A DNA stretch of 64,000 nucleotides from a virus (lineage: Duplodnaviria > Caudoviricetes): IMG/VR virus record IMGVR_UViG_3300042691_033915, positions 1,005-65,004 of that record; one strand, 5' to 3'. This document shows, one piece after another, positions 14,223 through 35,973 of the stretch (its first letter is position 1; each line of letters opens with the position of its first letter). The notes under the pieces are model-generated. The model did no database searches. It worked only from the letters and a program-made list of their open reading frames with translations, and was not told the DNA's origin. The position numbers were made by a program, and so were the translations under genes.

Positions 14223-14269
14223 ATAGACTCCCTATGGCGTCAAACCGATAAATTTTGGAGAATACGAAT

Positions 14270-18915: not shown

Positions 18916-19215
18916 ATGGCAAACCTGTCTCAGGTTAGACCTACGAAGGTCCTTACCCTTAATGACCTCGCCGATATCGAGGAGAAGTACGGCTCGCTTG
19001 ATCAGATTGACCTGACCAAGTTCACCGTCATTCGTTATATCCTTTGGCTAGTTCTGAAGAAGGACGAGCCGCAGCTTACCGAGCGCGAAGTGGGCGACCG
19101 CTTCAGCCTCGACACCATGCGAGAAGAGATCGATAAGGTCATGCGCGCAAGCGGTCTTCTTGGCGGTGAGGCTGAGGGCGCTGCGGGAAAAAGCGAGGAG
19201 GCGGCAAAGGCTTAG
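18916..19215 (+). CDS. tail assembly chaperone (gpG-like)
   Basis: AGGAG RBS; ends shortly after the slippery site G GGA AAA. Confidence 0.8.
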   Translation: MANLSQVRPTKVLTLNDLADIEEKYGSLDQIDLTKFTVIRYILWLVLKKDEPQLTEREVGDRFSLDTMREEIDKVMRASGLLGGEAEGAAGKSEEAAKA

Positions 19216-19466
19216 GTTGGAGCGAAATCGACTGGGGGAGCATCATGGCTTCCTACGCGGACAGCTTTGGCTTTACCCCCAGTGATTTTTTCAACTTAAC
19301 CCTCGCCCAGCTCAATGCCTTCTCTCAGTACGCTGAGAAGCGCGATGAAGATATGAAAAAGCGTTCCAAGGGCCAAGGAAATAAAAAGGGCGCAGGAACG
19401 TCAAGCATTGACTCCATTGAGCAGTTAGTGGCAACATTCGGTAAGCCGGGATTCGGCTCGTCCTAG
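19185..19466 (+). CDS. tail assembly chaperone frameshift extension (gpGT-like, -1 frame)
   Basis: The -1 frame from GGGAAAA at 19185-19191 is open through track ORF 19245..19466 (FGFTPSDFFNLTLAQL). Confidence 0.8.
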   Translation, partial: GKKRGGGKGLGWSEIDWGSIMASYADSFGFTPSDFFNLTLAQLNAFSQYAEKRDEDMKKRSKGQGNKKGAGTSSIDSIEQLVATFGKPGFGSS

Positions 19467-19485
19467 TCTCTTGTGAGGAAAACTC

Positions 19486-22400
19486 GTGGCAGATACGGCA
19501 GACCAGTCTAGCACTGGACAGATATCCATTGGTCTTGATACCAGTCAATTTAAGGCTGGAACACAGGCCATCCTTGCGGATATTCGACTGCTTACCCAGG
19601 GTCTTAATCAGTTTGAGGCAGCGGGAAGTAAAGTCGGATCGTCTTTCCGGGGGTTGCGACAAGCCTCTCTTTCACTTAGGCAATTCAGAAGTGCGGTCGA
19701 CGCGGACGCAATTCCTGCACTGCGAAAACTGCAGCTTCAGGCAAACGCCTCTGCTGCAAGCCTAAGCAGGGTATTCAACGTTGGGGCTCAGCCCAATAAC
19801 GCTGTTTCTGGTATTCAGCGCGTTACCAATGCCTTGGCGGCACAAGAGCGCCAGGCAATGCGAACCGCAGACGCGATGGCGCGTGCAGCGATGTCGCAAA
19901 ACCGCACGGGCGCAATGGCATTTAGAAATGCTGGGCGCTCAGGGAGCGGTTCCTTTGGTCGAGGTGGGGCAGGTACGGGAGCCGCAGGAACGCGCGGCGC
20001 CCGCTCCTCACTAGACGATTCCGGGGCGGCTGCCCGCTCTATACCCAGCATAGCGGGCATATCAAGGGCCGCGCTTGGCCTGGAGCTCTCTAAGCGCTCC
20101 GGCATGCGCAAGGCAGGAATTGCCGTTAGGGGCCGGACAGGGGATACGGGACCATCCTTTGACACAGACCAAGGATTTATAGCAAGAGAGTCCAGGTCGC
20201 AGCTTGGTTCCCGTCTTCATGCGCGAGAGCTTGGTCAATATATTTCAAGGTTGCTTGCCTCAGAAACTGGCGACGTCTCGTATCCAGTTGAATCATTAGA
20301 TCTAAGAAACTATGCATTCCGTGGGAGTCGATTTGGACCGCCAAAGCCAAGGCGAAGATCAGGACGCTACGGCACTCAGCAAGCAGACCTAGATCTCTTT
20401 GAAAAGGGATTAGAAGCAGGAGACTTAAACCTTATTGAGCAAGCCTTTGGCGGGCCGCGATCTCGCCTAAGAGAAGACGTCCGGCGTTTGCCTGCGTATC
20501 TGCAAAATTTAATTAAGATGGCTAGAAACGCCAGGAGATCCAGCAGCACTTTCTTCCCGCGCTCTAATCCTGGCAGGCCAATGTCGGTCCACATCCCCGG
20601 TCGAGGCCTAACAGAGCTCTCTAAGAAATCGGGCAGGGGCGGCAGCGGTGGCAACAAGGATATTGACCGCGTAGTTAGCCAGCTATTCCCGCAAGGATGG
20701 AAATTTGAAAAGCGTAAGGGCGGCCACAACGCCGTCATTGCTCCATCTGGCCAAAAAGTATTCTACCCATCATCAGCCTCAGACCGCCGCGCAGTACAAA
20801 ACTTTATTTCCGAGCTGCGCAAGAAGGGTGCCGTTATCGATGGTCGTGGCTACGGCGGCAAAGAGGGCAAGGGCGGGCCGAGCGAAATGTCACGACGCTC
20901 TGGCGGGCGACCCGTTGCTGAGACAGCCTTTGGTTTTGTGCCAGACCGCCGACTTCTGGAAGCAATGCGCAGGGGCGACATGTCGTTTGGCCAGGAGATT
21001 GGCGCTCAACGCCTAAACACAAGGAGAGTATCCGCCACTGTTTCTATGGGCGGAAGATCGGGCCCCGGAAGATATAGCGGCACGGCTATTGCCATGTTCC
21101 CAGAGAACGACAGGGGCCTTCGTGGTCAATCGGGGCGAGAGGTTGGAAGAAACCTTGGGCAAGGAGACAGAAAGACTAGGCGCACTAAACTTTCTCCATA
21201 TAGCCCGATGGCAGAAAAAGTATACGAGGTTCTTGGCGCAATGCTTGGGGCCCCTACGCCTGCGGTCGTTAGAAGAAGGCTAACTCCACTAGAGCAGCAA
21301 CTGGCCACTGGCGGGACACTGCCGCAAGTTGGTTCTTCAGCCAGGGCAAACATTGGAAAAACCCGCAGAGTTGCTTCTGGAAGATTTGAAAACCCACAAG
21401 TGCGTCAACGCCGACCAATGGGCCGCAATGCATGGATGATCCCGTGGCTTGACGATTTCCAACCAATGAAGAGCGTACTTCGCGGGCACCCGACATTTGA
21501 CAACGAGATTAGAACGCAGGCGACCAGACAACTTGGATCAACACGAGACATGCGACGCATCATGCTCCTTGATCAGATCCTTGGTCAGACAGATCGACAC
21601 GGCTCAAACATGATGGTCGGCAAGGGGCGCGGCGGAAAGCGAAGAATTCTTGGAATTGATAACGAGCATATGTTTAGCATGGGCGGCCTCAATAGGCCTA
21701 TCTCAGATCTTGATAGGCAGCTAAACAATACGCCGCAATTCTCGTCATTCTCTGCTCGCTATACGCCGAGAGATGTTCCGCAGGGTGGTGGCACATTGCT
21801 GCCGTGGATGACAAAAGGGAGCGGCTCCAGCCTTTCAAGAATTAAATTAACAAAGCAGGAGCAAGATGCATCTGCGCGCGAAGCAAAAACCCTAAGGGGA
21901 ATCCTTGGCGGCAAGAGGTCAATGAAGATTGTTGAAGAATCCTTCTTGACTGCTGGCTACTCCAAGAGGGACACCGATAGGTACATGGCGGCCCTTCGAA
22001 CAAGGCTAGAGGCTGCGGCAATTACAAGAGAGTCAGAGGCATCTTCCGGGAGCAGCGATGCCGGCGATTATTCGAAAATGTTGGAGATGTCGCGCCGATC
22101 TGGTGCACAAAGAAGGCTTGCATCAAGAGCCAGAGCAACTGGTCGCGGGGTCATGCTTCCTCATGATCTTCCTGGTGGCGATTTTGCGGAACTCCCAAGA
22201 CCGCTTCGGCTGCTTGGCGAAATGCTGCACAGAAAAGAAGTAAACAGGGTAGCTCGGCCGGTAGAGTTTGAAGATTCAACTAGGTCGTCTTTGGTTACGG
22301 GAGAAACGTTTACTCCTGGCCGAGCAAGCAGGGGCTCCCGCCCTGTAATTCCTCAAAACCTTGCTGGCCGAAGCCCAGAGCAAATTTTTGCAGAAGCGCT

Positions 22401-25400
22401 TGTTGCTTCGCACAACGCTGGTATGCGGGTTCGAGAGATTGGCGCAGACCCTGAACGTTTGATTAATGCTCAGCTGCAAGCTATGGGTGTTTCCGTTGCG
22501 CAAGATGGAAACGTTAGGAGAATTATTTCTCGATCAGATCAAATGACTGCAGCGCGCGCGTATCAATTGTTTAGGAGACAGCAAAAAGGAATGGGCTCAA
22601 TTGCCGCATTGTCGCCTGGCTCAGTTAACGTGAGCTCATGGTTGGGCCAACAAGGCGGCGACGAGGGCTCGCGCAAAGACCTTCTTGGCGGAGCCCTTGA
22701 TGCAATGAGCGGTTTTGATGCGTTTAGAGAGGTGAGCGCGGGCACCGCCGGGGCACGCAGAGATAGAAGGGCTGGTCAGAGCGGTAACCGCAGAATTGGC
22801 CTTACGGGCGGATTTATTGCTACCGCGCCTAATAGATTTTACGTTCCAGGGATGCCCGACGCTGCGGGCTTAAGGAATCTTGTTGTTGGCGCAATGACCC
22901 ACAGAATGCCTGGCACACACGAGCAGGGCAAGCTTGCCGGCCTAAAGGGCATTGGGGTGCCAGGTGTCGGCACTAGCCTTATGGCTTACGAGTTGCGTCG
23001 GCACGCGCGGGCGATCATGGAAGCTCGCAGGCGGTACCCCGGTGCCCTGGAGGCTAAGTACGGTGTAACCCCAGAAGATCTTTCAGCACTAGGCAGGCCG
23101 CAAGGTTCTCCTCGCGGCCTTAGCTTAAAGGCGAGCGGTTCTGGAATGGGCCTGTACGAAGCGCTTGGCTTTAGCTTTAGCGATCCCGTTGACGAAGACG
23201 GGAAACTACCGAGCCGATTTATGCACATGGGCGGGCACGCAGTTGTTGACACGTACGAAAAAATCCGCGCAGAGATTAAGCGCGTAGAGGCGGGCCTTGC
23301 CGCTCAGGGCATTGCTTACAGCCCAATGGAGTTTGCGCGAAGGTCGGGTAAGGCTTGGACCGACCCAAATCTTGAAGACCGAAGAACGAGTATTTCAAGC
23401 AGGCTAGTTCCAATGATTTCAGACCCAGAGCAGCTTCGCGTTTCAGAAGAAGACTTGCTTGGGCCGTTTACCAGGGGGACGCGTTTTAAGCTACAGAGCG
23501 AAACATACACTTCTGGCCCATCGGCAGGCAAGCCAATTGCCCGACCAAAATCCCATCGTGGAGTTAAATACTACACCGCCACAACTCCAGGCGGCATAAA
23601 GATCGTCAACATCCCCGAGGACATTGACAAGGGAAGATTGCAGCAACTAATTGCCTCTACGGAAACAATGCGCAGAAAATACCCAGACAAGTATTTTCAG
23701 GTAAACCTGCAATACGGCAAGAGCGACAGGGGGGCTCTGGGCACAGCTGATCTTGGCGGGTCATTAATGGAGCTACGCGACTCGCTGTTTTCGGAATTTG
23801 CAGAACAAACAACGGGGTGGCGAAATGATTTTGAAACATTTGCACCAAAAAACCCCAATCAGGTGCGAGAGCATTATGGGCCTTGGGAAGAGGGAAAGCG
23901 CAGAAAGTTCAGAATGGTCCCTCGTGGCGCCCCAGATGGACGCCACGAAACTCTTGACAACGCACAAACTTTGGTTGCTCACGAATTTGGCCATTTGTTT
24001 TCCCCAGATCAGTGGGGTAGACGGCTTTGGAAAGAGGCAGGATTCCAAGGAACAATGGCTGGCGCCTCGATGCCATACCTTGACTTTAGAAGAAGAGGTA
24101 AGGGCGTCTCAGGGGAATATGGCGACATGGCCACAATTTCCCAATGGCACGACCAGGGACGGAGCCCGGGCGGCGCAATAAAAGATTTCCTTTTGCCTTA
24201 CGAAAGAATAAACTCTAGAGGAAGCTACCGGGGTGCTCCGGGGTATTTTGGCGGGGAATACTCTCCAGGGAGTAAAGCGAATAAGGAAATGCTTGGATCC
24301 CAACATCCGTTGAGAGAAGAAATTTTTCCGGCCATGATGCGGAAGATTGGCGAACTTATGGTCATTGGTGAGTATGGCCCGCTTTCTGCAGTTCTTCCTA
24401 GGTATCAAAAGAAGACAACATCTAAGGGTCGAACACGCATGCCTGGAGACACAAAATTCCAAACCATTGAAGAGGCCATGGACGAACTTTGGAGGATTGG
24501 CGGATACCGCAACGCGGAAACCACATCCCCTGCTTCGGAGTGGTACGCCTCTATGTTTGAGAGGTACAGCACCAGATCATTTGGTCAACCCGGAGCTATC
24601 CCAAAGCACAACATGCTTGGCTATCGCGTTGCAAGGATAATAGCTAAAAACTCTGGCTGGGCTGAGTACAGCAAGCGCTCAGGTGGTATCGGCGGGATGC
24701 TTGGCGGTCTCTTTGGTAAGGGCAGACCGAACATCATGCAGCAGATCACGGGCGGACAAACCTATGGGATGACGCTAGAAGACCTGCTGGGCGGAGAAAT
24801 TATGCCCGGCATGGGAAAAGCGCCTGAAGGGTTCACGGGCGCAACTGGAAAACAAATCTTTAACCTGAAGACCATGGCTGGAGAAATTAGACAGGTTCTT
24901 GCGCAGCCAATAGGCGGCGAGTACTCCCAGGGTGGTCGATTCCCAAACAAGGCAATGGAGATCCTTGCTGGGCTTCTTGGGGTGGAGACCCCAACAATTC
25001 TGGAGCGCAGCATTGGCGGCAGGAGATTGGCCATTCAGCCGATAGCCCCAGCGGACACCGCAAGCAGATTTGTCCAGAAGCGCAACGCGCCCCCATCCAA
25101 GAGGGTTGATGTATGGGAAGACGACGAAATTATTGGCTTCTTCTCTCAGCCCTTAGGCCCGAGCTCAGATGATCCAGACCTTCGCAAGCAGCCGTGGCTT
25201 GCAAGCAGGGGCGGAAGGCGCATGCAGATCCTTGATCACATTGCGCAAACATTCGACCGTCATAATTCAAACTATCTTCTCAATTTAATTGACCCCCAGG
25301 CTGGCCTTGGTCAGCCTGGAAATTATCGCGTTACCGCAATTGACCACGATCTGACCCTTAGCCCACCGGGCACTGGGGTATTAGGTCGGAGTCCATATCG

Positions 25401-28400
25401 GCCAGCCAGCAATGTGCCAATTGGCATCCCCGGACAGTTCCGGGACACTCAAACAAAACTCGCAAGGGAAGAAGCCGCTACCCTTGCGGGCGTTATGACG
25501 CGGCGAAAAGTTATAGAGCCGCAATTGCTTGAAGCATTGCGAGCAGGGGGATATAGTGAGCAGGAAGCACTCGCAACAGTCGATGCTATCTTCAGACGCG
25601 CACGTGAAGCGTTTAGGAGTCGCATGGCTGAATCGCGGGGCGCAGCCCGGCCGGACGGTCGGGAACTATCACGAAGATCAGGGGGTGGCGGTATGAACGG
25701 CCTGACGAACCCCTTTGCCGAATACAGCAAGCGCAGCGGCGGCGCAGCCACAAAAGATCCATATACATCCTTGCAGACCGCCTTTGAGCAGGTCACCCTT
25801 ACCGCCATCAAGAACCTGAAGGTATCCCTTGCTGGGCAGAAAGTAAGTCCTCAACTCCTTAGAAGCAGCTTTGCATCTTTCCAGCAAACAATTCTTGACG
25901 CAGCTACGGGCCAGGGAGAATTTGCTGGCGGCTCGATGCAGAAGGCGCTGCGCGGCATTGCACCAAAGGCACGCAAGTCCTTGATGGGCATGTTCAGCGG
26001 CATCCTGCAGGATATGGTGGACACGGGCACCGCCGCATTCAAGCGTGGCGACTTGAAGGGCATCCCTCTTCGCAAAGTGCTGTTCGGCATGCTTGGCTCA
26101 GTGCCGTCAACCTATGCGCCAGACATTGCGCAGATTGCCGCAAACCCAGCGCTTCAAGGAAAGAAGCCGAGCGGGAGCAGGGACAGAATCCCAGGAATTG
26201 CCGGAATAAATAAATACGCCACTGGGCTACAGCAGCTTGGCGGAGTTCCAATAGCTGCAGGGTTGCGCCTTGCTGGCTCCGCCACGCTTGATCAGCACCT
26301 ATTGGATCAAGGGTTTAACCCAGAAAACTATCGAGGCAGGGCCGGAATTGTTACCGACCTAATGCAAAAATATATGCCGAGCAGCCCAGGACTTCCTTCG
26401 GGCCTTAGATTCACAGACACACTCACCCCAGACAGCGAGGGTCGAAGTTCTTGGGGTAACTACATGCCAAGTAGGGGTGCGGGCATGGTTGGGCCAGGAA
26501 CGGCATACCCAGATGATCGCGTTGGGCAAATTTCTCTTGATCTTGGTAGCCAGGGGGGCATGCGGCGAAACGGCCTGGACAGAAGCACAGTAACCATTGG
26601 CAAGCTACTGGCAACGACGGCACATGAAATTACGCACAAAATGGTTGATGAGGCACAACTAGAAGCCGCAAAACTTTCTATTGGAAAAACTGACGCAGAG
26701 AAAGAAGAAATTCTCAAAAAGGTTACGGCCGCCAGGGGCGTACCGCAGAAAGATAAGTATAGGGCATACTCTGGTATTTCCGGGGAATACATGTTTGTGC
26801 CAAAAGGCAGTGCCCCAATTGGCGCACGTCCAATACCGCTGGGTAGCGGACAAAACCCAGAGGCTTACAGCTACATGGAGCTGCCAAAGGGTTCAATTAC
26901 AGAGTCGGAATACAAGGCTTTAAGCCCCAAGGCCAAGGCATCTTACGAAAAGGGCTACGTAACTGCAGATCAAGCAAGGGCAATTGACTCCAATGCAGGT
27001 GGACAACACATTAACGTCCCTGGACACTTTGGGCCACAGGCAGCAATGCTTGATGATTTTGGTGCCGGAGTTACGGAGTACGCACAGCTTCTTGCAGCAT
27101 CTACAAGGATTTTGCAACCAGGAGAAACACAAGCAAGCCTGCTCAGGTCTACGGCACAAATGAATGCTGGGTCCCGAGCAAACATAACTAGCTTCTCTGC
27201 GGCAACCCCAGGGGTTGCGGGAGTTTTGAACCCATTCCAGGGCGGCTTGCTTAAGGCATTTGATCTTTCCAAGGCGACTGGCGTGGGCTCATCCATGAAG
27301 CCAGTTGCTGAATTCCTTGCAAGGCTTCAAAGGAATATGTCCAGTCAGATGACCGACGCAACGGCCGCTGGTGGGCTTGACCCTAAGGATCTTGGCTCCA
27401 TGTTTACAAAGGCGCTTGCAAAAGCAATAGAGGCAACGCCAAAGGGCGAGCGATCCAGCGCTCTTTCGGCAATACGCCCAGACAGAATGCTTGACGCAGC
27501 TGTCATTCTTGACAGCATCGGTAGAGCAAAAAATATTCCGGCGTTGACGCGGATGATTGATGCGGGCGGGGCAGTTCCCGCAGTTTCAAGCCCGCATGGC
27601 ATTATGGGTTCAGACACGGAAACCGACGCAGACGTACAAAAAATTAACCGAGAGCTTGCCCGGGGCGGAGGGTCTCGCAAAAGAAAGCCAGCGCCCGGAC
27701 CGGCCCCAACCCCAGGCGCAGGACCTGGACTTGGATCTTTGCCACCAGACAGAATTGCAGTCATTGCCCCTAAGGGCGCTGATTTGCTCAGCAAACTCAC
27801 AGAGATTTTGTCAATGGGTGTTTCTGGCGGCGGGAAGGAAAATATTCCTCTCCGCAAGGTTATTCGCAAGGAAGCCGGACTGCCCGACCGACCACTCAGG
27901 GGAACGCAGCTTGCCACGGATAGCCTGACGAGTTCGGGCATTGCTGCGCTTGCGGAGCAGTTCCCAGAGCTTCTGCCGTTTGTACGAGAGTACAGACCAA
28001 ACCATCCGCTTCTTGGGCCTCAGCCAGGAACCAGGCTTCCTGCCACGAAGCGCGGGCGACGCGGAAGCGTAATTCAGTCACGTATTTCGACCTCAACGGC
28101 GGTGCAGCCATACGCTGACACCATGGACCCAGACTATTACCAGAATCAGGCCGATGCAATCTTTGGCTCCCGAGTCAACGATGCCTTTAACATGCTTGGC
28201 GGCCAGAACGGTCTTGGCTATTCGCCACGGGGATTTGGCAACCATATGAACGTCCTATTGGACGTAATGCCAGAAGATCAACTTCAGGGAGGCATAGACA
28301 AGCTTAAGCAGTTTGGCGCAACCATGAAGGACGCCTTCCTAAACTCCAAGCCCGTAGTTGGTTTGATGCAGGACTTTGATGATGCAGTGCTTAGGGCGGC

Positions 28401-31400
28401 AGACGGATCGCTGGACTTCAGTAAATCACTTGATGCGGCAACCGCGAGTAGCGGTGGGTTGGTAAATCAGCTGAAAGAAACGGTAAAACTTGCCGTTGCA
28501 TTCGTTCTTACGCAGAACGCTGCTAATGCTATTTACCGATCTATTAGCCACCTTTCCTCAGGTTTTATCCAGTTTAACCAGTCGCTTGAAGACGCCAAGG
28601 TAGGCTTCTCGACACTGTTCTACAACGCTGGCGATTCCATGGGCGTGGCCGAAGGTCGCGCAACTGGAATGATCGAACGCTTGAAGGAATTTGCTAACGT
28701 AACGCCGTTCTACTTCACGCAGCTGCAAGAAGCAGCTGTCCGAATGCAGGCTTTCGGTCTTGACATCGGGCAGGTTCTGCAGAGAGACCCGAATACGGGC
28801 GAGCTTGTTGGTTACATTAAGAACATCGGAGACGCAGTAGCCGCACTCGGTGGTGGCGATGAAAAGATCATGCGCATTACGTATGCGCTTGGTCAGATGA
28901 ACTCCGCTGGTCGCGTATACCAAAACGACATGATGCAGCTGGCAAACGCCGGTATCGCTGGATACGAAATCCTTGCTGAGGCTCTTATTAATGAGCTTGA
29001 AGCCAAGGGCAAGGACATGACTAATGAGGATAAGAAGATCCTCAACGACTTGTACACAAACCGCGTAGAGGCAATTCGAAAGCTGACAACTTCAGGAAGA
29101 ATTTCTGGTAAGGCTTCGGCTGCTGCCATCCTTTCTGGACTTGGCGAAAAGTACGGCGGCGGAATGGAGCGGTTGTCTAAGACGATGACGGGTGCGTTGA
29201 GCACCGTTTCCGACATGTCTCAGTCGCTTGTTGCAACCTTGACTGGGCCTCTGTACAACGCAATTAGAGACCTAGTTGTTGAGTTCGCAGGCGTTTTGCA
29301 AAGACCAGAAACCTTGGCCGTTTTTGTTACGATGAGCCAAAAGTTGCAAGGCTTTGCTGCTACGATAAAAGAAGCAATTCCCGCAACAGTTGCTACAATC
29401 GTTAATGCGTTTACCTACCTTGGCGGAATTATTGCTAAGGTCTTTGGTGGATCTGGAACCGCAAGCGCTGTTGACCTCCTAAGGTCAGGCCTACAGACAA
29501 TAGGGGATCTCCTTTCTAACAATGTAGTAAGAGCCGCTATCCTGGCAAGCGTTGCACTAAAGGCAATGATGTCAGTTGTTTCGGCAAACCCGCTTGTTGC
29601 GACTATTGGCATTGTTCTTGCGGCCCTTGGGGCCCTCCGTCAAGCCTACGAAAGTAACTTCCTTGGCTTTGCGGATACAGTCGACAACGCAATGGCACCG
29701 CTTGCGGAGATGGGCCCGGATATTGCCGAGTCTATTATCCCGGCGCTCAAAGAACTTATTGCTGCTGCGGCTCAGGTTATTGGCGGCGGTTTGGTTCTTG
29801 CGCTAAAGGCGGCATTGCCGATTATCTCCGCTCTTGCCAGCGCTCTTGGCGGCATGGCTGGAATCCTTGAAAAACTAGCCCCGCTCATTGGTGCATTCAT
29901 GGGGGCGTGGATTGTAAAGAAGGTTGCCATTGAAGGAATGGCTATTCTATTTACCAAACTGCAGAATGCAGCCGCATCAGCCGCAATGGCTGCTGGTGTT
30001 GCTGGGGTTCAGATGTCTTCGTGGGGCAAGCCTGGGGCAACCTACTACTCGCAGAAAATCCCTGTTCGAGCAGAAACCGTGGAGACAGAAGATGGACCGG
30101 TAACTGTATATAGGTCTGCCGCCCCAGAGGAGGGCCCAGGTGCAATCTCTAAGGGTGTTTCAATTGGCGATACGGACAAGGCCAGAGGCGCCATTGCTGG
30201 GCACATGCCGTTTGAGAAAATGTATGCCCTACCGCCAGAGCTTGCAAAAGTTCGATTGCAGTATTTGTCTAACGAAGGAATTATTGACCCAGCAACCGGA
30301 AAGCTGGCCGGGCTTGATGAGCAAGCCGGCACTGCGCAAGGTGCGCGCACGGAAAACAAAATTTTGCGATCAAGAAGCATGGAAGAAATTCTTGCTGCGT
30401 CAGGACGAGTTACGGTAGAGCAAATTGTAGAAGCAAGAAAGCAGCTAAGAGGGGACCAGGCACTTCAAGAGGCAGGTCTTGTTGATGTAAGTGAAACTGG
30501 AGAAGTTACCGCAAGCGAGCGAGGGAGAAGGTTCCTTCGAGAAAAACTTGAAAACGAACGTCAACGCCGAGCATTTGATAATGATATTTCAGTAGAGGAG
30601 CAGGTAAAGCGCGACCAGGCAGAGGCTGCCAGCATTAGGCAGGCCAATAAAGAGGGCCAAAAAGTTCTTGGGTATGTGCCAAGGCAGATTCCTGATTATG
30701 CCATAACCCCAGCTCAGCTAACCCCCGAAGAGGAGCTACAGGCGCTTCGTGGGCTAAAGGGAAGAACCTTTAAGGAAGGGTTTAATTACAACTATACGGC
30801 AGAGCTTTCTAGGCGCCATGCCGAGGCTAGGGCGGCGGGCAGGTATAGAACCGGCCTGGACGGATCAGAAATTCCAAACCTTGGGCTTACAGGAAAACTG
30901 CGAGCGCGAGGCGTTGCCACCGTTAAGACAATAAGCGACATGTTCGCCATGGGCGGACAAACCGAAATGATTGGCACGGCAGCTGATAAGTTTGGCAGCC
31001 TCGCCATGGCCACAAGCGGATTGCTGATGGGCTTTGAGGCCCTTGGCTCTACCGTTGGAATTAGCAGCAAGGAGCTGCAGGGCGTCTCAACGGCCCTTAT
31101 GGGTCTGGCTATTGTCTCAAAGGGTGTTGCTGCCGCAATGGCGGGAATTAGTGCCGCTGGCGGCCTAAAGAACGCCCTTAGTGGTCTACTTGGCTCCATG
31201 GGCGGGCCTATCGGCGCATCAATTATGGCCGCAATGGCTGGGGCCGTTTTTGTTGCGTCTGAAGTCTCTAAGCACGAAGCAGAGGCGCAAGCGTATAAGA
31301 ATCAAAGGAAAGATGACAAAGAGCGAGAAAAAGCAATTAAGACCAATTGGAACGAAAGCGGGCTTGGCTATCAAGTTCCGCTGATGGCTGGCGGCGAAGC

Positions 31401-34400
31401 GCAATATGACCTTTATGGTTTCTCCGATGGGAAGACCCTTGGTGGAAACATGGGCCAATCCAAGATTGACGAGCTCGTCGCGCAAGGATTGTTTAAGAAG
31501 GAAGCCGGCGCAATACCTGGAAGATTTACTTACACCCCAACAGAGGCAGGTAGGGCAAAGGGATACATTAGCGCAAAGGCGCTAACGCAAGCCGCAACCC
31601 CAACGTTTGGCTCTGCCCCAACTGCGGCTGTTAATAGGGTAGACGACCTTCTTGTCAGCTCCACTGGCGGAATTATGGAAGCCACGCCAGCGGAAAGAAT
31701 GGGTCAGGACAATGCAGACAAGCTGCAAACACTTCTTGAAATGGGTGTTGTCAGCGAAGATTTTATTAATCAACTTGTTACAGACATCCGCATATCAGAC
31801 AACGCCAGTTTCTCTGGTACTTATAGAGACATGTACGAGAAATCAGGGGTTATACCGGCTATGCGCGAGAGGTATGGCGCGGCCTACGATAAGTCGTTTG
31901 ATCAGCAACTGTTTGGCTTGTTTAGTACGTTCGATCCAAAAGATTTCATGACCGAAATCTTAAAATCGGAAAACACAGATCGGGCAATCCTTAATAAGCA
32001 TGGACTCAGCCAATACTCGTTTACTGGAGAATATGGAAAAGAGGGCGTGCCAAACGAGGCAATCTTCTCAACGTCTGAATCTCTAAAGCTTCTTAACGAA
32101 AGCCTAGACGACGCAAGCAAGGCGCTTGACGAAGCAAAGAAAAAGCTGTCTAAGCTGTTTGACCCATTTGCAACTGCCTTTGAGCAGTTGATGGGCAGGG
32201 CTAAAGAGCTTCTCCAGCAAGAGTTCCAAGTGGAGCAGGAGCAGCTTAACGCCGAAATGGAAGACGCGTTGTACAACGTTGACGCGCTGTACAACGGGGA
32301 AACCATGCGCCTGGGTGTTTTGGAAGAGCAATACAAACTGCTCCAGGAGCAAAAAGCAGAGCAGGAAAAACTTAATGCTCTTAACGACGCGCAGGAAAAT
32401 GCCGCACGGGCAACCCTTGGGTTGTTTGACGCACAGCAAGACCCAATCCAGGCAGCCATCGCCGCAAGAGAGGCTGCTCAGAAACTGCAAAAAGAAGAGC
32501 AAAACTATCAGCTTAACCAGATGTCTGAATCAATTGATCAGGCAAAGAATAGCGTTCAGTATCAACAGACAACAACGTATTACGACGAGAAGAAAGAAAC
32601 TCTTACGGCAGATCAGGCAGAGCGCTCTAGGCGCCTAGAGGAGCGAGCGCAGCAACTTCTTAAGGATATCCAAGAGGGCAAGATTACTGTAGCCGCAGCT
32701 CAGGAAGAGTTCATGGCAATGTTTGGCGATGCCGGCTTGCCACTTGAATCTATTCTTGAAACTGGCCAGTTCCAAGGCGAAGCCCTTGCGGACATTATGG
32801 GCACAGCGTTTGCCACAAGATTCCAAGAGCTTGGCGACATTATTGTCACCACAATGGCGGATGTGGTCAAGGCTGGTATTGCGGCGGCGGCAGCTGAGGC
32901 AAACGTCGACGCCATTGTAGATCAGATTGACAAAATTGAAAACAAGAAAGACAAGATTAAGAAAAAGGATGTTGAAGCTGAACGAGACCGGATGAAGCAG
33001 GTCCTCATAAAGTCTCGGGCTTCTCTTGACGCATACTCAATTAGCGAGGGTGTTCTTGGCACAGAAGCTGGTAGAAAAGCTAACGCTGCGTCGGAAAGCC
33101 TTGTATCGCTGATTTCCGATTTGGGCAAAATGGACTTTTCTCAGTACGGCGAGTACCTAACAAGGGCTCAGTTCGGTACAGAGTTTGACCGCATTTACAG
33201 CGTCATGGATAACATTTACAAGACCTTTGGTCCATTGCAAATGATTAGCCCGACCTACGGCGATAGCCGTGATCGAACCGATCCAACGCAGCCAGTAATC
33301 AGAACAAGACCACCAAAGCCAACAACATACCCAGTGGGGCACCATGCGGGCAGTGGGTACTGGTATCCGCTCGGCGACGTTGAGTGGGCGTTCTACGATT
33401 CTATGGGTAACTTTGTTGAAAAGCGCGCCAAGGGCGGACCGGTTGGTGCCGGTCAATACATTGTCGGAGAGCGTGGGCCAGAAATGCTCACAATGTTCCC
33501 CAATGGTGGTGGCTACGTCACGCCAAACCATGAGCTTCCAAATAGCATTCAATCCTCTGCTGGCGCGCTTAAGGCAGGCAAGCAGGGACGATACTACGGC
33601 GGCCTGGTTGGTGTAACTGGTCGAGCTGGCGGCGGATATGTCGGTCCAAACCGAGACACCTGGAACTACGATACCCCGTCGGAGAGCTTTACTAGAAGCT
33701 TGGGCTTCGTTGGCGATCCTGTGGGCTTCCAGCAGCACTCGTTCAACGAGTTTATGGATAGCCCGAGCAGGACAAAGGTCGAGAAGAATGAACTAGCCCG
33801 TAGGTTCCCAAAGAACTACGCTCGCTATGTGGCAAGCAAAGTTCGCAGTGGCGGACCAAGGGGCTGGAGCCCAGTCGTCGGTAGAGCCGATGGCGGATAC
33901 CTTGGGGGATGGGATTCTTGGGATAGGCCACAGCCAGCCGAGACGCCAATTCCAGACAAAAAGGGTGGCTATGGGATAGATAGTTGGGGCGCAAGAATTC
34001 AAGACGAAAATCTTGTTAACGGCATCCCTTCGGGAAGAGTTCATTTCCTCGGCGACCTAGACCCTATTCAAAAAATTTGGAACAAGCTTGGTCCAAACGA
34101 AGGGAAAATCGGCGGAAGCGGAGATAAAATTCGCTTTGACTGGGGCGACGTAATTATCTCAGACGACTACAGAAGAACGGGCCAGACGGTTGACTTGGCA
34201 GCTCTATCTGAAGCTGCAAGGCTATCGCTTGCGGCAGCTCCGGAAAACATGTTTGACCCGAGCGATAGAACAAAAAGGGTAACAATTGTTATTACGCCAG
34301 ATTTAGGGGAGTCAGTAACGGGTCGAGTAAAATACCCAACTGGGCCAAGGAAAAATCACATTTACCTTAACCCCAGAGGAAGCACAAAGAGCGGCACCAC

Positions 34401-35973
34401 TTGGGATATGAACAAGCGCGGGGCCGCTAACACTAGCGGGTATCTGTCAACTCTTGCTCATGAAACCGGCCATTTAGTTCATTCAAGAAAACACGGGACG
34501 CCGTTCCTCAGGGGGCAAGGGATCTTTTCTCCGCTTGTTAGCTTGTTAAGCCTTGGAACTCAGGGCGGCATAGGTTTGCCCATGGGACTCCTACAGAAAA
34601 TTGAGGCTGTAAATCCAAAGCTGGCAGTAGCACTGGCGAGAACTTTCCGACTACCTGGTCTTGCGGTAAATACTCAGGGTCGACTTGCTGATCTGAATAG
34701 AGAAGCTTTCTTGCGATCAGCAGCAGGCCAGGGAGGAGATACCTTAAGTTGGGCGAAGTTCTCTGGCGGCAGTCCCTCCGTAAGCTTCTATGGAATGGGT
34801 TCGCCAGCAGAAAACTATGCAGATTCATTTAAGTATCACGTATTAAATCAGGTTCCGGGGACGCAAGGGAAAACCCTTGGGGAACAAATTCTTGGTCCTG
34901 AGCCAACTATGGAGGATCAGAGATACAGGACTGGAACCGGATGGGATCTGGTCCCAGAAAATAACCCAAGGGCGCAATATGAAAAAGACTTGCTGGAATA
35001 TAGAAAAAAGAAAGCCGTTGCCGGAACCTCTAGAGTCCTGGCAATAAGGGAGGGATGGCAAAACATTGAGCAAAACCTAAACAAGCAGTCGCTGTCCCCT
35101 GTTGGCGGTAAGGACGTTGCATATACTCGTGTAGCTGGTGGGCAGCGGCCCGATTCCTTTACGCCAACCTACAGGACCAGCTCGGGCTCTAGCGCAGTAG
35201 GCGCTGGGTTAAAAGTCTTTGACAAAAATATGAACACGAAGAAAGGCAACGTCTTTGCCTCTATTGCTGCTGATATTGGTCAAATGGCAGCATCTGGCCA
35301 GTGGGATTTTGGCAGACTCATCTTTAACAGAATTTTTGATTTGCTTGGCGCAATACCAATGATTGGCGGTAAGCTATCTGTTATCGCTGGTCTTGCAACA
35401 ACGCTACTGAGTGGTGGCGACGTCGGCAGGGCTGGGGTTGGCATGATTGGCTCTCTGCTTGGCGAGTTCCTTGGCTCCATGGCCCTTGCCCCGATTGGCA
35501 TGCCATGGCTTGGTGGATTTGTCGGCGGCGCGCTTGGCGGCTTGTTGGCTGACGCAATTTATGCTAATATTATAAATCCGGCTGCAGCGTCAAAGCCAAA
35601 CGTAATGGTTGGTGGCGGCAAATATGGCGTGTATAACCCTGGCCCAAGCATGCCAGATATTACCAAAATCCTGCCAGAGCAGCGAGCCTTTGGTGGGTCG
35701 ATTGGCAAGAACATGCCATACCTTGTTGGCGAGCGTGGGCCAGAGCTCATGATCCCTGACAGCAGTGGCTACATGTTGCCAAATACCGGTCTTCGAGCAT
35801 TGCAGGCGCCTGGGGACTTGCGAATGGCTGGCGGAGGCGCGACAATCAATGCGTCCGTCACCATTAACAACCCTGTTGTGTCGGATGCCGCAGATATTGA
35901 TAAACTTGCCGAGAAGGTAAGTTCGGCACAGGTACGCACCCTCCGTGCGGCAGGCTTCATGAGGCCAAGTTGA
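19486..35973 (+). CDS. giant multidomain tape measure protein (5495 aa)
   Basis: Follows the G/GT chaperones. TMP-like N-terminus (ISIGLDTSQF). Tape-measure domain near 28570-29250 (EFANVTPF..ITYALGQM..QLANAGI). C-terminal GG and VGERGPE motifs. Internal enzyme-like modules. Confidence 0.9.
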   Translation: MADTADQSSTGQISIGLDTSQFKAGTQAILADIRLLTQGLNQFEAAGSKVGSSFRGLRQASLSLRQFRSAVDADAIPALRKLQLQANASAASLSRVFNVGAQPNNAVSGIQRVTNALAAQERQAMRTADAMARAAMSQNRTGAMAFRNAGRSGSGSFGRGGAGTGAAGTRGARSSLDDSGAAARSIPSIAGISRAALGLELSKRSGMRKAGIAVRGRTGDTGPSFDTDQGFIARESRSQLGSRLHARELGQYISRLLASETGDVSYPVESLDLRNYAFRGSRFGPPKPRRRSGRYGTQQADLDLFEKGLEAGDLNLIEQAFGGPRSRLREDVRRLPAYLQNLIKMARNARRSSSTFFPRSNPGRPMSVHIPGRGLTELSKKSGRGGSGGNKDIDRVVSQLFPQGWKFEKRKGGHNAVIAPSGQKVFYPSSASDRRAVQNFISELRKKGAVIDGRGYGGKEGKGGPSEMSRRSGGRPVAETAFGFVPDRRLLEAMRRGDMSFGQEIGAQRLNTRRVSATVSMGGRSGPGRYSGTAIAMFPENDRGLRGQSGREVGRNLGQGDRKTRRTKLSPYSPMAEKVYEVLGAMLGAPTPAVVRRRLTPLEQQLATGGTLPQVGSSARANIGKTRRVASGRFENPQVRQRRPMGRNAWMIPWLDDFQPMKSVLRGHPTFDNEIRTQATRQLGSTRDMRRIMLLDQILGQTDRHGSNMMVGKGRGGKRRILGIDNEHMFSMGGLNRPISDLDRQLNNTPQFSSFSARYTPRDVPQGGGTLLPWMTKGSGSSLSRIKLTKQEQDASAREAKTLRGILGGKRSMKIVEESFLTAGYSKRDTDRYMAALRTRLEAAAITRESEASSGSSDAGDYSKMLEMSRRSGAQRRLASRARATGRGVMLPHDLPGGDFAELPRPLRLLGEMLHRKEVNRVARPVEFEDSTRSSLVTGETFTPGRASRGSRPVIPQNLAGRSPEQIFAEALVASHNAGMRVREIGADPERLINAQLQAMGVSVAQDGNVRRIISRSDQMTAARAYQLFRRQQKGMGSIAALSPGSVNVSSWLGQQGGDEGSRKDLLGGALDAMSGFDAFREVSAGTAGARRDRRAGQSGNRRIGLTGGFIATAPNRFYVPGMPDAAGLRNLVVGAMTHRMPGTHEQGKLAGLKGIGVPGVGTSLMAYELRRHARAIMEARRRYPGALEAKYGVTPEDLSALGRPQGSPRGLSLKASGSGMGLYEALGFSFSDPVDEDGKLPSRFMHMGGHAVVDTYEKIRAEIKRVEAGLAAQGIAYSPMEFARRSGKAWTDPNLEDRRTSISSRLVPMISDPEQLRVSEEDLLGPFTRGTRFKLQSETYTSGPSAGKPIARPKSHRGVKYYTATTPGGIKIVNIPEDIDKGRLQQLIASTETMRRKYPDKYFQVNLQYGKSDRGALGTADLGGSLMELRDSLFSEFAEQTTGWRNDFETFAPKNPNQVREHYGPWEEGKRRKFRMVPRGAPDGRHETLDNAQTLVAHEFGHLFSPDQWGRRLWKEAGFQGTMAGASMPYLDFRRRGKGVSGEYGDMATISQWHDQGRSPGGAIKDFLLPYERINSRGSYRGAPGYFGGEYSPGSKANKEMLGSQHPLREEIFPAMMRKIGELMVIGEYGPLSAVLPRYQKKTTSKGRTRMPGDTKFQTIEEAMDELWRIGGYRNAETTSPASEWYASMFERYSTRSFGQPGAIPKHNMLGYRVARIIAKNSGWAEYSKRSGGIGGMLGGLFGKGRPNIMQQITGGQTYGMTLEDLLGGEIMPGMGKAPEGFTGATGKQIFNLKTMAGEIRQVLAQPIGGEYSQGGRFPNKAMEILAGLLGVETPTILERSIGGRRLAIQPIAPADTASRFVQKRNAPPSKRVDVWEDDEIIGFFSQPLGPSSDDPDLRKQPWLASRGGRRMQILDHIAQTFDRHNSNYLLNLIDPQAGLGQPGNYRVTAIDHDLTLSPPGTGVLGRSPYRPASNVPIGIPGQFRDTQTKLAREEAATLAGVMTRRKVIEPQLLEALRAGGYSEQEALATVDAIFRRAREAFRSRMAESRGAARPDGRELSRRSGGGGMNGLTNPFAEYSKRSGGAATKDPYTSLQTAFEQVTLTAIKNLKVSLAGQKVSPQLLRSSFASFQQTILDAATGQGEFAGGSMQKALRGIAPKARKSLMGMFSGILQDMVDTGTAAFKRGDLKGIPLRKVLFGMLGSVPSTYAPDIAQIAANPALQGKKPSGSRDRIPGIAGINKYATGLQQLGGVPIAAGLRLAGSATLDQHLLDQGFNPENYRGRAGIVTDLMQKYMPSSPGLPSGLRFTDTLTPDSEGRSSWGNYMPSRGAGMVGPGTAYPDDRVGQISLDLGSQGGMRRNGLDRSTVTIGKLLATTAHEITHKMVDEAQLEAAKLSIGKTDAEKEEILKKVTAARGVPQKDKYRAYSGISGEYMFVPKGSAPIGARPIPLGSGQNPEAYSYMELPKGSITESEYKALSPKAKASYEKGYVTADQARAIDSNAGGQHINVPGHFGPQAAMLDDFGAGVTEYAQLLAASTRILQPGETQASLLRSTAQMNAGSRANITSFSAATPGVAGVLNPFQGGLLKAFDLSKATGVGSSMKPVAEFLARLQRNMSSQMTDATAAGGLDPKDLGSMFTKALAKAIEATPKGERSSALSAIRPDRMLDAAVILDSIGRAKNIPALTRMIDAGGAVPAVSSPHGIMGSDTETDADVQKINRELARGGGSRKRKPAPGPAPTPGAGPGLGSLPPDRIAVIAPKGADLLSKLTEILSMGVSGGGKENIPLRKVIRKEAGLPDRPLRGTQLATDSLTSSGIAALAEQFPELLPFVREYRPNHPLLGPQPGTRLPATKRGRRGSVIQSRISTSTAVQPYADTMDPDYYQNQADAIFGSRVNDAFNMLGGQNGLGYSPRGFGNHMNVLLDVMPEDQLQGGIDKLKQFGATMKDAFLNSKPVVGLMQDFDDAVLRAADGSLDFSKSLDAATASSGGLVNQLKETVKLAVAFVLTQNAANAIYRSISHLSSGFIQFNQSLEDAKVGFSTLFYNAGDSMGVAEGRATGMIERLKEFANVTPFYFTQLQEAAVRMQAFGLDIGQVLQRDPNTGELVGYIKNIGDAVAALGGGDEKIMRITYALGQMNSAGRVYQNDMMQLANAGIAGYEILAEALINELEAKGKDMTNEDKKILNDLYTNRVEAIRKLTTSGRISGKASAAAILSGLGEKYGGGMERLSKTMTGALSTVSDMSQSLVATLTGPLYNAIRDLVVEFAGVLQRPETLAVFVTMSQKLQGFAATIKEAIPATVATIVNAFTYLGGIIAKVFGGSGTASAVDLLRSGLQTIGDLLSNNVVRAAILASVALKAMMSVVSANPLVATIGIVLAALGALRQAYESNFLGFADTVDNAMAPLAEMGPDIAESIIPALKELIAAAAQVIGGGLVLALKAALPIISALASALGGMAGILEKLAPLIGAFMGAWIVKKVAIEGMAILFTKLQNAAASAAMAAGVAGVQMSSWGKPGATYYSQKIPVRAETVETEDGPVTVYRSAAPEEGPGAISKGVSIGDTDKARGAIAGHMPFEKMYALPPELAKVRLQYLSNEGIIDPATGKLAGLDEQAGTAQGARTENKILRSRSMEEILAASGRVTVEQIVEARKQLRGDQALQEAGLVDVSETGEVTASERGRRFLREKLENERQRRAFDNDISVEEQVKRDQAEAASIRQANKEGQKVLGYVPRQIPDYAITPAQLTPEEELQALRGLKGRTFKEGFNYNYTAELSRRHAEARAAGRYRTGLDGSEIPNLGLTGKLRARGVATVKTISDMFAMGGQTEMIGTAADKFGSLAMATSGLLMGFEALGSTVGISSKELQGVSTALMGLAIVSKGVAAAMAGISAAGGLKNALSGLLGSMGGPIGASIMAAMAGAVFVASEVSKHEAEAQAYKNQRKDDKEREKAIKTNWNESGLGYQVPLMAGGEAQYDLYGFSDGKTLGGNMGQSKIDELVAQGLFKKEAGAIPGRFTYTPTEAGRAKGYISAKALTQAATPTFGSAPTAAVNRVDDLLVSSTGGIMEATPAERMGQDNADKLQTLLEMGVVSEDFINQLVTDIRISDNASFSGTYRDMYEKSGVIPAMRERYGAAYDKSFDQQLFGLFSTFDPKDFMTEILKSENTDRAILNKHGLSQYSFTGEYGKEGVPNEAIFSTSESLKLLNESLDDASKALDEAKKKLSKLFDPFATAFEQLMGRAKELLQQEFQVEQEQLNAEMEDALYNVDALYNGETMRLGVLEEQYKLLQEQKAEQEKLNALNDAQENAARATLGLFDAQQDPIQAAIAAREAAQKLQKEEQNYQLNQMSESIDQAKNSVQYQQTTTYYDEKKETLTADQAERSRRLEERAQQLLKDIQEGKITVAAAQEEFMAMFGDAGLPLESILETGQFQGEALADIMGTAFATRFQELGDIIVTTMADVVKAGIAAAAAEANVDAIVDQIDKIENKKDKIKKKDVEAERDRMKQVLIKSRASLDAYSISEGVLGTEAGRKANAASESLVSLISDLGKMDFSQYGEYLTRAQFGTEFDRIYSVMDNIYKTFGPLQMISPTYGDSRDRTDPTQPVIRTRPPKPTTYPVGHHAGSGYWYPLGDVEWAFYDSMGNFVEKRAKGGPVGAGQYIVGERGPEMLTMFPNGGGYVTPNHELPNSIQSSAGALKAGKQGRYYGGLVGVTGRAGGGYVGPNRDTWNYDTPSESFTRSLGFVGDPVGFQQHSFNEFMDSPSRTKVEKNELARRFPKNYARYVASKVRSGGPRGWSPVVGRADGGYLGGWDSWDRPQPAETPIPDKKGGYGIDSWGARIQDENLVNGIPSGRVHFLGDLDPIQKIWNKLGPNEGKIGGSGDKIRFDWGDVIISDDYRRTGQTVDLAALSEAARLSLAAAPENMFDPSDRTKRVTIVITPDLGESVTGRVKYPTGPRKNHIYLNPRGSTKSGTTWDMNKRGAANTSGYLSTLAHETGHLVHSRKHGTPFLRGQGIFSPLVSLLSLGTQGGIGLPMGLLQKIEAVNPKLAVALARTFRLPGLAVNTQGRLADLNREAFLRSAAGQGGDTLSWAKFSGGSPSVSFYGMGSPAENYADSFKYHVLNQVPGTQGKTLGEQILGPEPTMEDQRYRTGTGWDLVPENNPRAQYEKDLLEYRKKKAVAGTSRVLAIREGWQNIEQNLNKQSLSPVGGKDVAYTRVAGGQRPDSFTPTYRTSSGSSAVGAGLKVFDKNMNTKKGNVFASIAADIGQMAASGQWDFGRLIFNRIFDLLGAIPMIGGKLSVIAGLATTLLSGGDVGRAGVGMIGSLLGEFLGSMALAPIGMPWLGGFVGGALGGLLADAIYANIINPAAASKPNVMVGGGKYGVYNPGPSMPDITKILPEQRAFGGSIGKNMPYLVGERGPELMIPDSSGYMLPNTGLRALQAPGDLRMAGGGATINASVTINNPVVSDAADIDKLAEKVSSAQVRTLRAAGFMRPS

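Follow-up and report, generated by a model that had tools for sequence, protein, structure and literature searches.

The window analysed here, 64,000 nucleotides from a tailed virus of the Caudoviricetes (IMG/VR record IMGVR_UViG_3300042691_033915, positions 1,005 to 65,004), has as its longest open reading frame (ORF) a gene at 19486..35973 (+) with a GTG start, whose product of 5,495 aa and 589 kDa is predicted by position and domain to be the phage tail tape measure protein (TMP). Our analysis suggests, with a probability that we put at roughly 0.6, that this is a genuine tape measure gene fused to a polyvalent cargo array, in which a recurrent heptapeptide is a probable cleavage site. In such a protein an ordinary long tape measure (aa ~2951-4700) would carry in front of it a basic array of ~2,950 residues with at least eight modules, which include two PI3/4-kinase/HipA-type loops, two conserved HExxH motifs and one small HicA-like fold, and of which the first eight end in the heptapeptide. 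A C-terminal slot of ~600 aa, fenced by motifs of the type R↓AxGG (the arrow stands at the cut known from phage T5 pb2) and occupied in the window by a third HExxH module, would be a second cargo position.

Domain architecture of the tape measure protein

The product can be divided as follows (single modules were scanned against Pfam to E <= 5, with HMMER filters dropping most matches above about 0.1):

19486..20103 (+): M0, aa 1-206, pI 11.7, conserved basic piece; ends in motif 1, ELSKRSG (nt 20083-20103)
20104..20634 (+): M1, aa 207-383, no family at E <= 5; ends in motif 2, ELSKKSG (nt 20614-20634)
20635..20904 (+): M2, aa 384-473, small alpha-beta-beta-beta-alpha module, weakly HicA-like; ends in motif 3, EMSRRSG (nt 20884-20904)
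20905..22104 (+): M3, aa 474-873, kinase-like module 1; ends in motif 4, EMSRRSG (nt 22084-22104)
22105..23349 (+): M4, aa 874-1288, no Pfam match; ends in motif 5, EFARRSG (nt 23329-23349)
23350..24684 (+): M5, aa 1289-1733, HExxH module; ends in motif 6, EYSKRSG (nt 24664-24684)
24685..25683 (+): M6, aa 1734-2066, kinase-like module 2; ends in motif 7, ELSRRSG (nt 25663-25683)
25684..25740 (+): M7, aa 2067-2085, the 19 residues between motif 7 and motif 8 (EYSKRSG, nt 25720-25740)
25741..28335 (+): M8, aa 2086-2950, basic and Gly/Pro-rich, with no further junction motif and no family
28336..33423 (+): ordinary tape-measure core, aa 2951-4646, with TMP_3, hydrophobic segments and a helix-rich stretch
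33424..33906 (+): first pb2-type motif, R4647↓AKGG...GERGPEM, and GRAxGGY repeats at R4713 and R4800 (phrog_1538)
33883..35682 (+): C-terminal cassette slot, aa 4800-5399, basic, with HETGH at aa 4992-4996 (nt 34459-34473)
35683..35970 (+): second pb2-type motif, R5400↓AFGG...GERGPEL, and the conserved C-terminal end (phrog_5062)

These pieces fall into three sharply unlike parts: aa 1-2950 are basic (every module has an isoelectric point, pI, of 9.6-11.7, and the summed net charge is +128), the core at aa 2951-4646 is acidic (pI 4.6-5.6), and aa 4647-5495 are basic and Gly/Pro-rich. The fraction of Gly plus Pro is 0.14-0.21 over aa 251-3000, where helix formers make up 0.30-0.41; the respective values for aa 3001-4500 are 0.05-0.16 and 0.42-0.58, and aa 4501-5495 are again Gly/Pro-rich (within 0.14-0.23) and poor in helix formers.

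The tape-measure signature resides in the acidic part. Pfam family TMP_3 (PF20155) matches aa 3053-3251 (nt 28642-29238; E 3.1e-11, 43.8 bits, cut-off 41), and TIGR02675 ('tape_meas_nterm'), the sole match in an NCBIfam search of the protein, covers aa 3114-3166 (21.6 bits, cut-off 21.35). Both scores barely exceed their cut-offs, and three TMP PHROGs agree with them (to E 8.7e-13). A tblastn search of 50,697 phage records with aa 2801-4800 matched 30 records; of the 25 that were listed, all with an annotation are tape measures apart from one hypothetical protein, and the listed matches are confined to query residues ~167-627 (aa ~2967-3427). Kyte-Doolittle windows above 1.6 lie at aa 3347-3461 and 3867-3927, followed by a helix-rich stretch at aa ~4191-4500 (nt 32056-32985), in which aa 4251-4500 have a Gly plus Pro fraction of 0.05 and 58% helix formers, a composition consistent with the coiled coil that an earlier note on the window had placed near 32050-33000. 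Taken by itself, the core has every feature of a complete TMP. The same note had described a single 16.5-kb ORF at the TMP locus with a tape-measure domain displaced to nt 28570-29250; both observations are borne out, the former by the gene order (head genes and a chaperone pair precede the ORF, and distal tail genes come next) and the latter by the position of the TMP_3 match. Its description of the first ~130 aa as normal and TMP-like found no homology support: aa 1-206 have no match in Pfam, PHROG or NCBIfam, and a tblastn search of the 50,697 phage records with this segment gave nothing at E <= 0.01.

Continuity and selection of the reading frame

Protein and viral-contig collections yielded nine distinct relatives of the gene besides the window, none of which has a stop in frame; seven of the nine show pairwise identities of 62-87%. 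Two have full-length ORFs (5,435 and 5,426 aa), the gene call of another begins at the Met after the first junction motif (5,298 aa), and further ones, open past their contig ends, reach at least 5,322, 4,775, 3,999 and 3,151 aa. The three full-length versions (5,495, 5,435 and 5,426 aa) agree in length within about 1.3% despite identities of 62-76%. When the gene was compared with four related loci, Nei-Gojobori dN/dS could be calculated for all 15 segments, save for four saturated segment/locus cells, and came to 0.007-0.41, with 0.007-0.11 in the TMP core, 0.045 in aa 1-206 and 0.08-0.41 in the cargo modules. The whole frame is under purifying selection and is not a chance opening.

We also aligned assembled contigs from four public runs, which belong to different studies, to the gene divided into 30 bins. 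They cover 30/30 bins in run X3, 26/30 in X10, 23/30 in X8 and 10/30 in an RNA library, the last with a few matching contigs that do not demonstrate transcription. No isolated frame-breaking indel occurs among the 12 listed rows of 15: all are compensating +1/-1 pairs or multiples of three, and the gaps of one diverged X8 contig total 33 letters. The continuity of the ORF therefore holds up, with nine unbroken versions and contigs of independent runs that tile the gene. The 4,921-aa call of the window's product in the collection starts 574 codons too late; the part upstream of it is under strong purifying selection.

Modules of the N-terminal array

M0 is the best-conserved N-terminal piece, with 92-100% identity per 100 aa in relatives P0005 and P0006 and the dN/dS of 0.045 given above. 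Behind it, M3 and M6 both contain LDxxxxQTxDRHxxN ... ID[N/H], which by prediction form loops for catalysis and metal binding like those of the PI3/PI4-kinase/HipA type. In M3 the catalytic loop is DRHGSN (aa 703-708, nt 21592-21609) with IDNEH behind it, and in M6 it is DRHNSN (aa 1924-1929, nt 25255-25272) with IDHD behind it. Pfam PI3_PI4_kinase (PF00454) matches aa 686-731 with 35.4 bits when a 2,000-aa piece is searched (cut-off 27.1), the alignment taking in profile positions 131-173 of 241; M6 alone reaches 16.4 bits (E 0.0087), below the cut-off. The DRHxxN loops and the following Asp are kept in all relatives that cover M3 and M6, and these two are the only pair of modules linked by hhalign (probability 66%, E 5.6e-5). 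A blastp comparison of the protein with itself revealed no internal repeats.

The HExxH motif occurs three times, as HEFGH in M5 (aa 1499-1503, nt 23980-23994), as a conserved HEITH in M8 (aa 2380-2384, nt 26623-26637) and at aa 4992 in the C-terminal cassette, and it is kept wherever the relatives have sequence. M5 exists in three allelic forms, the other two being ~41% identical to that of the window, and all of them keep HExGH. In hhalign the HExxH modules align with each other only across the motif helix (E 0.009-0.04). M2 is the only part that AF2 modelled with some confidence (alpha-beta-beta-beta-alpha, pLDDT 58-81); it is weakly similar to Pfam HicA_toxin (PF07927; E 0.046, 14.3 bits, under the cut-off of 27), matches phrog_2089 (E 2.9e-8) and has one His that is conserved among the relatives. 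For M4, the best score in an Atlas search was 0.77 (range 0.75-0.77), below the useful level, with GNAT families among the weak rows; the GNAT-like motifs are an impression and serve as a lead only.

The array has few relatives of any kind. An HMMER search of 1.84 billion representatives with aa 474-1673 gave four matches, namely the window's own protein, a fragment of 278 aa and two large, unrelated proteins built of arrayed kinase-like repeats, which match over the catalytic loop and lack the heptapeptide. There were no shorter homologues of aa 207-2900 among 8,000 scored candidates. Profiles compared with PDB sequences gave no match for aa 207-1288 and a single meaningless one (E 0.35) for aa 1289-2400.

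The junction heptapeptide

The junction heptapeptide HEPTAPEPTIDE, with the pattern [E/Q]-[L/M/F/Y]-[S/A]-[K/R]-[K/R]-S-G, is present in eight copies that start at aa 200, 377, 467, 867, 1282, 1727, 2060 and 2079, and is absent elsewhere in the six frames of the 65-kb record. In 2,000 shuffles of the protein the mean number of copies was 0.0035 and the maximum 1. The positions are kept in P0005 and P0006 (8/8 each) and in P0003 (7), which is called from the Met directly after the first copy; in relative L001 one of the copies reads EYNRRSG. The codons for Ser, Arg/Lys and Gly vary between the copies, and one and the same copy shows synonymous changes between relatives. This drift of codons with the residues kept argues for selection on the peptide and not for a DNA repeat. 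Each copy is preceded by a conserved stretch; four of the eight have Gly directly behind them, three of these a series of Gly residues, and RGGSGG comes after motif 2.

The heptapeptide also coincides with boundaries of divergence. Right after motif 5 (...RRSG) the relatives split three ways, and they rejoin ~15 residues ahead of motif 6. The same two motifs coincide with a joint in run X10 (23342->24658), which is most simply explained as a diverged M5 allele that fails the 90% likeness threshold.

We regard the heptapeptide as probably a processing (cleavage) site. Three registers of cutting are chemically plausible. Cutting after Glu would match the prohead proteases of T4 and phiKZ, cutting before the hydrophobic residue would match thermolysin-like zincins, and the third register lies behind the dibasic pair. 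Candidate cutting enzymes are the chain's own HExxH modules, a host protease and an S8 subtilase encoded by the phage. The prohead S78 protease of this phage shows no tie to the heptapeptide, which is absent from the head protein, from the protease-scaffold protein and from all other frames. The gene for the S8 subtilase (57985-58917, -) is convergent with the large terminase gene and encodes 310 aa of the proteinase K/aqualysin type, with a hydrophobic signal-like N-terminus and without a pro-domain; two related records have it with 91-92% identity. Phages seldom encode subtilases, and a link of this one to TMP processing is only a guess. A complex prediction for subtilase aa 20-310 with TMP aa 2036-2105 gave no answer (score 0.01) and weighs neither way.

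The C-terminal slot

Behind the core, the first pb2-type motif matches the TMP family phrog_1538 (profile positions 707-753 of 811) and the second one the TMP family phrog_5062 (profile positions 646-709 of 753). The region of the second motif aligns in blastp with T5 pb2 residues 1114-1197 (28% over 104 aa, E 0.089), and with the TMP of Roseobacter phage CRP-701 it shares 41.5% over 65 aa. Altogether R↓AxGG is present four times, and its copies fence ~750 residues that include the ~600-aa slot. Between the last GRAxGGY and RAFGG this slot measures 601 aa in the window and 622 aa in relative L004, and the two sequences have no BLAST similarity at E < 1 (best E 1.2, over 9 residues). Non-homologous cassettes have thus truly been exchanged within a motif-fenced slot. 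A second joint in run X10 (33626->35711) falls on the borders of the slot; one of its sides is short, hence this evidence is weak.

Comparison with known systems

The closest parallel is gp96 of Thermus phage P23-45, a 5,002-aa TMP that carries an N-terminal virion RNA polymerase, contains metallopeptidase and transmembrane parts further along and is full-size in virions (PMC10770324). Phages of the P23-45/P74-26 type have a tail of nearly 1 µm (PMC10034513), that of P74-26 being described as the longest known viral tail, and theirs is the only experimentally studied TMP of such size. The protein of the window is likewise a giant single-gene TMP, with predicted enzymatic cargo at the N-terminus, putative metallopeptidase and transmembrane parts beyond it and a siphovirus gene order, and it is 493 residues longer. 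A blastp comparison of the two gave nothing at E <= 1, and D.D.D (the DxDxD catalytic motif) was not found in the 5,495 aa. The cargo differs in kind: here it is multi-module, with kinase-type and HExxH signatures, fenced by the heptapeptide, basic and Gly/Pro-rich, whereas gp96 is rich in helix formers nearly throughout, with a Gly plus Pro fraction of 0.06-0.14 in 17 of its 20 full 250-aa windows and up to 0.18 in the rest. T5 pb2 shares with gp96 this richness in helix formers and the low Gly plus Pro over nearly its whole length.

A second parallel is with the polyvalent proteins, which combine many enzyme domains in one chain, among them zincins for processing and kinases, and for which an early role after entry was proposed (PMC5512222). 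As in those proteins (Iyer et al. 2017), one huge phage polypeptide here appears to combine many unrelated enzyme-like domains, with HExxH and kinase signatures. The evidence for enzymes in the window's protein is at the level of signatures (two DRHxxN, three HExxH and a weak HicA-like fold), and neither the Zincin-like MPTase nor the Kinase-PolyVal Pfam families were matched by pieces of the protein at E <= 0.1 or by single modules at E <= 5. We take the dedicated polyvalent families to be PF18818 and PF18762. The kinase signature is of the PI3/4K/HipA type here, in contrast to the Ser/Thr type without a C-lobe in polyvalent proteins, and the portions of PMC5512222 at our disposal describe no fence comparable to the regular heptapeptide; the term 'tape measure' has 0 occurrences in the main text of that paper.

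Processing is known from other tape measures. Lambda gpH and T5 pb2 are cut near the C-terminus during tail morphogenesis, pb2 after R1127, between a segment of hydrophobic residues and a metallopeptidase motif, and the piece stays in the tail (PMC10038345). The pb2 sequence at R1127 reads ...PR↓AEGG...GEHGTE; it is resembled by R↓AxGG...GERGPE at R4647 and R5400 of the window's protein, located likewise after a hydrophobic stretch. Ordinary tape measures have an R↓AxGG-type motif once, near the end; unlike the single copy in pb2, the motif is repeated here and brackets ~750 residues with a swappable slot. The N-terminal heptapeptide is a different motif from that at the pb2 cut. In mycobacteriophage TM4 the TMP has an embedded peptidoglycan-hydrolase motif that acts at infection (PMC1796659), which is a small motif within a ruler of normal size, whereas here thousands of residues make up separate modules. 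Tape measures with embedded functions (TM4, T5 pb2, P23-45 gp96) and polyvalent proteins with zincin processing are thus already known; in the literature we found no published TMP with a fenced array of kinase-type and HExxH modules, with this heptapeptide or of such length. For tape measures that bear kinases or resemble polyproteins, P23-45 and the work on polyvalent proteins were all that turned up; a match to MinS1 had no bearing on the question, and a review of jumbo phages repeats the known concept.

Proposed mechanism and alternatives

From this architecture we infer that the chain, like other tape measures, would be non-native when it is assembled into the lumen of the tail, and that at ejection it would pass into the envelope of the host before the DNA does; its modules would be freed by cutting at the heptapeptide, through its own HExxH modules or another protease, and would then act in the host. 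It is the fusion to a TMP, and solely this feature, that suggests delivery into a recipient cell.

Several points weigh against this reading. P23-45 gp96 stays full-size in virions, so that cargo need not be cut (PMC10770324). M3 alone scores 24.5 bits for PI3_PI4_kinase, under the cut-off of 27.1, the evidence for kinases is a match of ~45-80 residues around the catalytic loop, and the ATP-binding lysine could not be placed in either kinase-like module. The HExxH modules have neither a peptidase-family match at E <= 5 nor a match to a solved structure. AF2 models of aa 207-1288 (alignment of 5 rows) and of M5 (7 rows) have mean pLDDT values of 36 and 42, respectively, and no fold besides that of the small M2 is supported by modelling. 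Among the nine relatives there is no gain, loss or unrelated replacement of any N-terminal module, and the heptapeptide is seen as an exchange joint just at boundaries of divergence, the other exchange observed being that in the C-terminal slot. Three folded cargo arrays of 330 kDa would exceed a lumen of ~4 nm, and their storage must be non-native or elsewhere.

A bolder version of the same idea, which we put forward tentatively and consider doubtful as a whole, would make the tail a cartridge for the injection of proteins. The tail would be near or over the 1-µm record and contain three 589-kDa chains, which on ejection would be cut at the heptapeptide into at least eight basic proteins that enter the host before the DNA. 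The released proteins, about 330 kDa per chain, would be kinases, metallopeptidases, a HicA-like RNase and others; the heptapeptide would represent a processing signal that is new and specific to the lineage, and the slot near the C-terminus would be a second, exchangeable cargo bay.

At 0.15 nm per residue the core corresponds to a tail of ~250 nm and the whole chain to one of ~820 nm; the range predicted from sequence runs from about 250 nm to 0.8-0.9 µm, and we consider a tail of more than 0.6 µm about as likely as not. A long tail is favoured because P23-45/P74-26 combine a cargo-bearing, full-size TMP with a tail of ~1 µm, and because the total length of the protein stays within about 1.3% in three versions, an unrelated cassette being of nearly equal size. 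Tail-tube structures have a lumen about 4 nm in diameter. With this value, three 589-kDa chains (~2,100 nm3) are calculated to fill ~68% of a 250-nm tube, as compared with roughly 20% calculated in the same way for the tubes of lambda, T5 and P23-45. If the cargo is in the lumen, the tail should therefore be much longer than the core predicts, and a short tail would mean that the cargo is removed. The earlier note had offered a choice between an extraordinarily long tail and cargo outside the ruler. Composition, charge, enzyme signatures and the conserved peptide speak for cargo, and the either/or is probably a false choice, since cargo and extreme length coincide in P23-45/P74-26.

The best-surviving alternative, on balance unlikely in our view, is that the whole chain is the ruler: all 5,495 residues would lie in the tube of a tail of ~0.8-0.9 µm, as long as that of P74-26 or longer, and remain uncut, with the heptapeptide as a structural or docking joint. 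It agrees with the cargo-fusion reading on carriage and differs on cutting and on the role of the motif. The TMP of P23-45/P74-26, full-size and enzyme-bearing in a tail of ~1 µm (about 0.16-0.2 nm per residue of the whole chain), is a precedent for it. The near-constant length of 5,495, 5,435 and 5,426 aa at 62-76% identity, and that of the cassettes (601 and 622 aa), also speaks for it, although this constancy comes from few, closely related genomes. Within the N-terminal half, moreover, conservation is highest at the extreme N-terminus (dN/dS 0.045), as expected of a functional end of the tape. On the other hand, aa 251-3000 and 4501-5495 are Gly/Pro-rich (0.14-0.23) and helix-poor, unlike gp96 and T5 pb2, and eight peptides conserved at the protein level exactly at the ends of modules are more typical of processing sites.

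Distinctly less probable is that the fusion serves only expression and processing, with the modules cut off in the producer cell during tail assembly, only the core of ~1,700 aa (~250 nm) left in the tube, and the freed modules either acting in the producer cell or packaged elsewhere. The trimming of lambda gpH and T5 pb2 in tail morphogenesis is in line with such a scheme, yet the known trimming of TMPs is C-terminal and the cut piece of T5 stays in the tail (PMC10038345). It could likewise draw on the four copies of the pb2-type R↓AxGG, on a core with all features of a complete TMP and on the implausibility of a 250-nm tube ~68% full with three whole chains (at the lumen diameter assumed above). 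The phage does encode a conserved proteinase K-type S8 subtilase, but the signal-like start of this enzyme means that it may act outside the cytoplasm, where tails are not assembled. The scheme also leaves the fusion of enzymes to the first-ejected protein, in all nine relatives, without explanation.

An artefact, be it separate genes fused by misassembly (the caveat attached to the earlier note) or a decaying pseudogene, has a negligible probability: apart from starts that are called differently in the collection (products of 4,921 aa for the window and 5,298 aa for one relative) nothing speaks for it, the nine independent unbroken versions and the tiling run contigs exclude a misassembly, dN/dS is far below 1 throughout, aa 1-206 included, the indels of other runs compensate each other or total multiples of three (33 gap letters in one X8 contig), and a Shine-Dalgarno-like word, GAGGA, precedes the GTG.

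Gene order and genome context

Upstream of the TMP gene, the same strand carries first the genes for a protease, the head protein and an adaptor; these are followed by an HK97-gp10-like gene, the tail-tube-position gene and a chaperone pair. The following were located:

10906-12672 (+): Peptidase_S78 prohead protease gene, precedes the TMP gene
12679-13905: major head protein gene, precedes the TMP gene
14255-15205: head-tail adaptor gene, precedes the TMP gene
18916..19466 (+): tail assembly chaperone pair of the G/GT type, ORF 18916-19215 plus the -1 frame

The ORF in the tail-tube position (246 aa) has no family match. ORF 18916-19215 (99 aa) matches phrog_2115 'tail protein' (E 2.9e-10) and ends with the canonical slippery sequence GGGAAAA at 19185-19191, from which the -1 frame runs without a stop to 19466; the two are predicted to form the usual G/GT arrangement of tail chaperones. 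The Shine-Dalgarno-like GAGGA lies 6 nt 5' of the GTG at 19486. Downstream of the TMP gene come an ORF of 2,649 aa and then a tail-fibre/Tal-like gene. The 2,649-aa ORF (35970-43919, +) shares 4 bases with the TMP stop and has zero Pfam or PHROG matches; the start of the same gene, 251 aa and open-ended, is found behind the TMP gene in loci L008 and L009. We presume its product to be a very large protein of the distal tail or of the central fibre.

Several neighbouring genes have peculiarities of their own. The protease gene (10906-12672, +) encodes a fusion of Peptidase_S78 (aa 48-170) with a ferritin-like/Dps-type domain (aa 206-343; Pfam Ferritin, E 3.7e-12; phrog_3636 'DNA binding protein', E 1.6e-23), which ends in an acidic tail rich in Ala, Glu and Pro; a ferritin-like domain on a capsid-internal protease/scaffold brings to mind the ferritin-like cargo of encapsulins. 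An exonuclease-family gene on the opposite strand (16140-17903, -; 587 aa; phrog_284, E 4e-43) interrupts the structural genes, with the head-tail connector genes on one side of it and the tail-tube-position gene on the other, and in L004 and L008 its position is taken by a shorter ORF (427 aa). The portal gene (7952-10099, -) opposes the strand of the adjoining protease and head genes, and the large terminase gene (56540-57988, +) is ~46 kb away from it, an unusual layout for the packaging and head module of a siphovirus.

The record of the window is a single virus contig of 65,004 bases and may be incomplete. A sister record (G002, with locus L008) measures 90,839 bases; it ends in direct terminal repeats, and its completeness is rated as 100%. 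The share of the TMP gene in the genome would be nearer 18% than 25%, because the 65,004-base record is probably incomplete.

Distribution and significance

DNA nearly identical to positions 19300-36100 of the window was found in metagenome runs labelled as freshwater, lake water, aquatic, 'fungus' and crustacean. In 12 public runs at least half of the sampled words were present, and the 20 rows listed stem from 14 studies. This type of phage is thus common across fresh waters. When genome contigs were scanned with the TMP core and with the major head protein, neither a relative nor a host turned up, and there is no close phage among the 50,697 phage records.

If the modules are indeed carried and released, the tape measure would be a general vehicle for the delivery of enzymes, with ~1 MDa of cargo per virion, a scale far above the single RNA polymerase of P23-45. 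With 5,495 residues, more than the 5,002 of the P23-45 TMP, the protein also tests the rule that the length of the TMP sets the length of the tail, and both a record and an exception would be informative. The regular heptapeptide provides a direct experimental handle on these questions.

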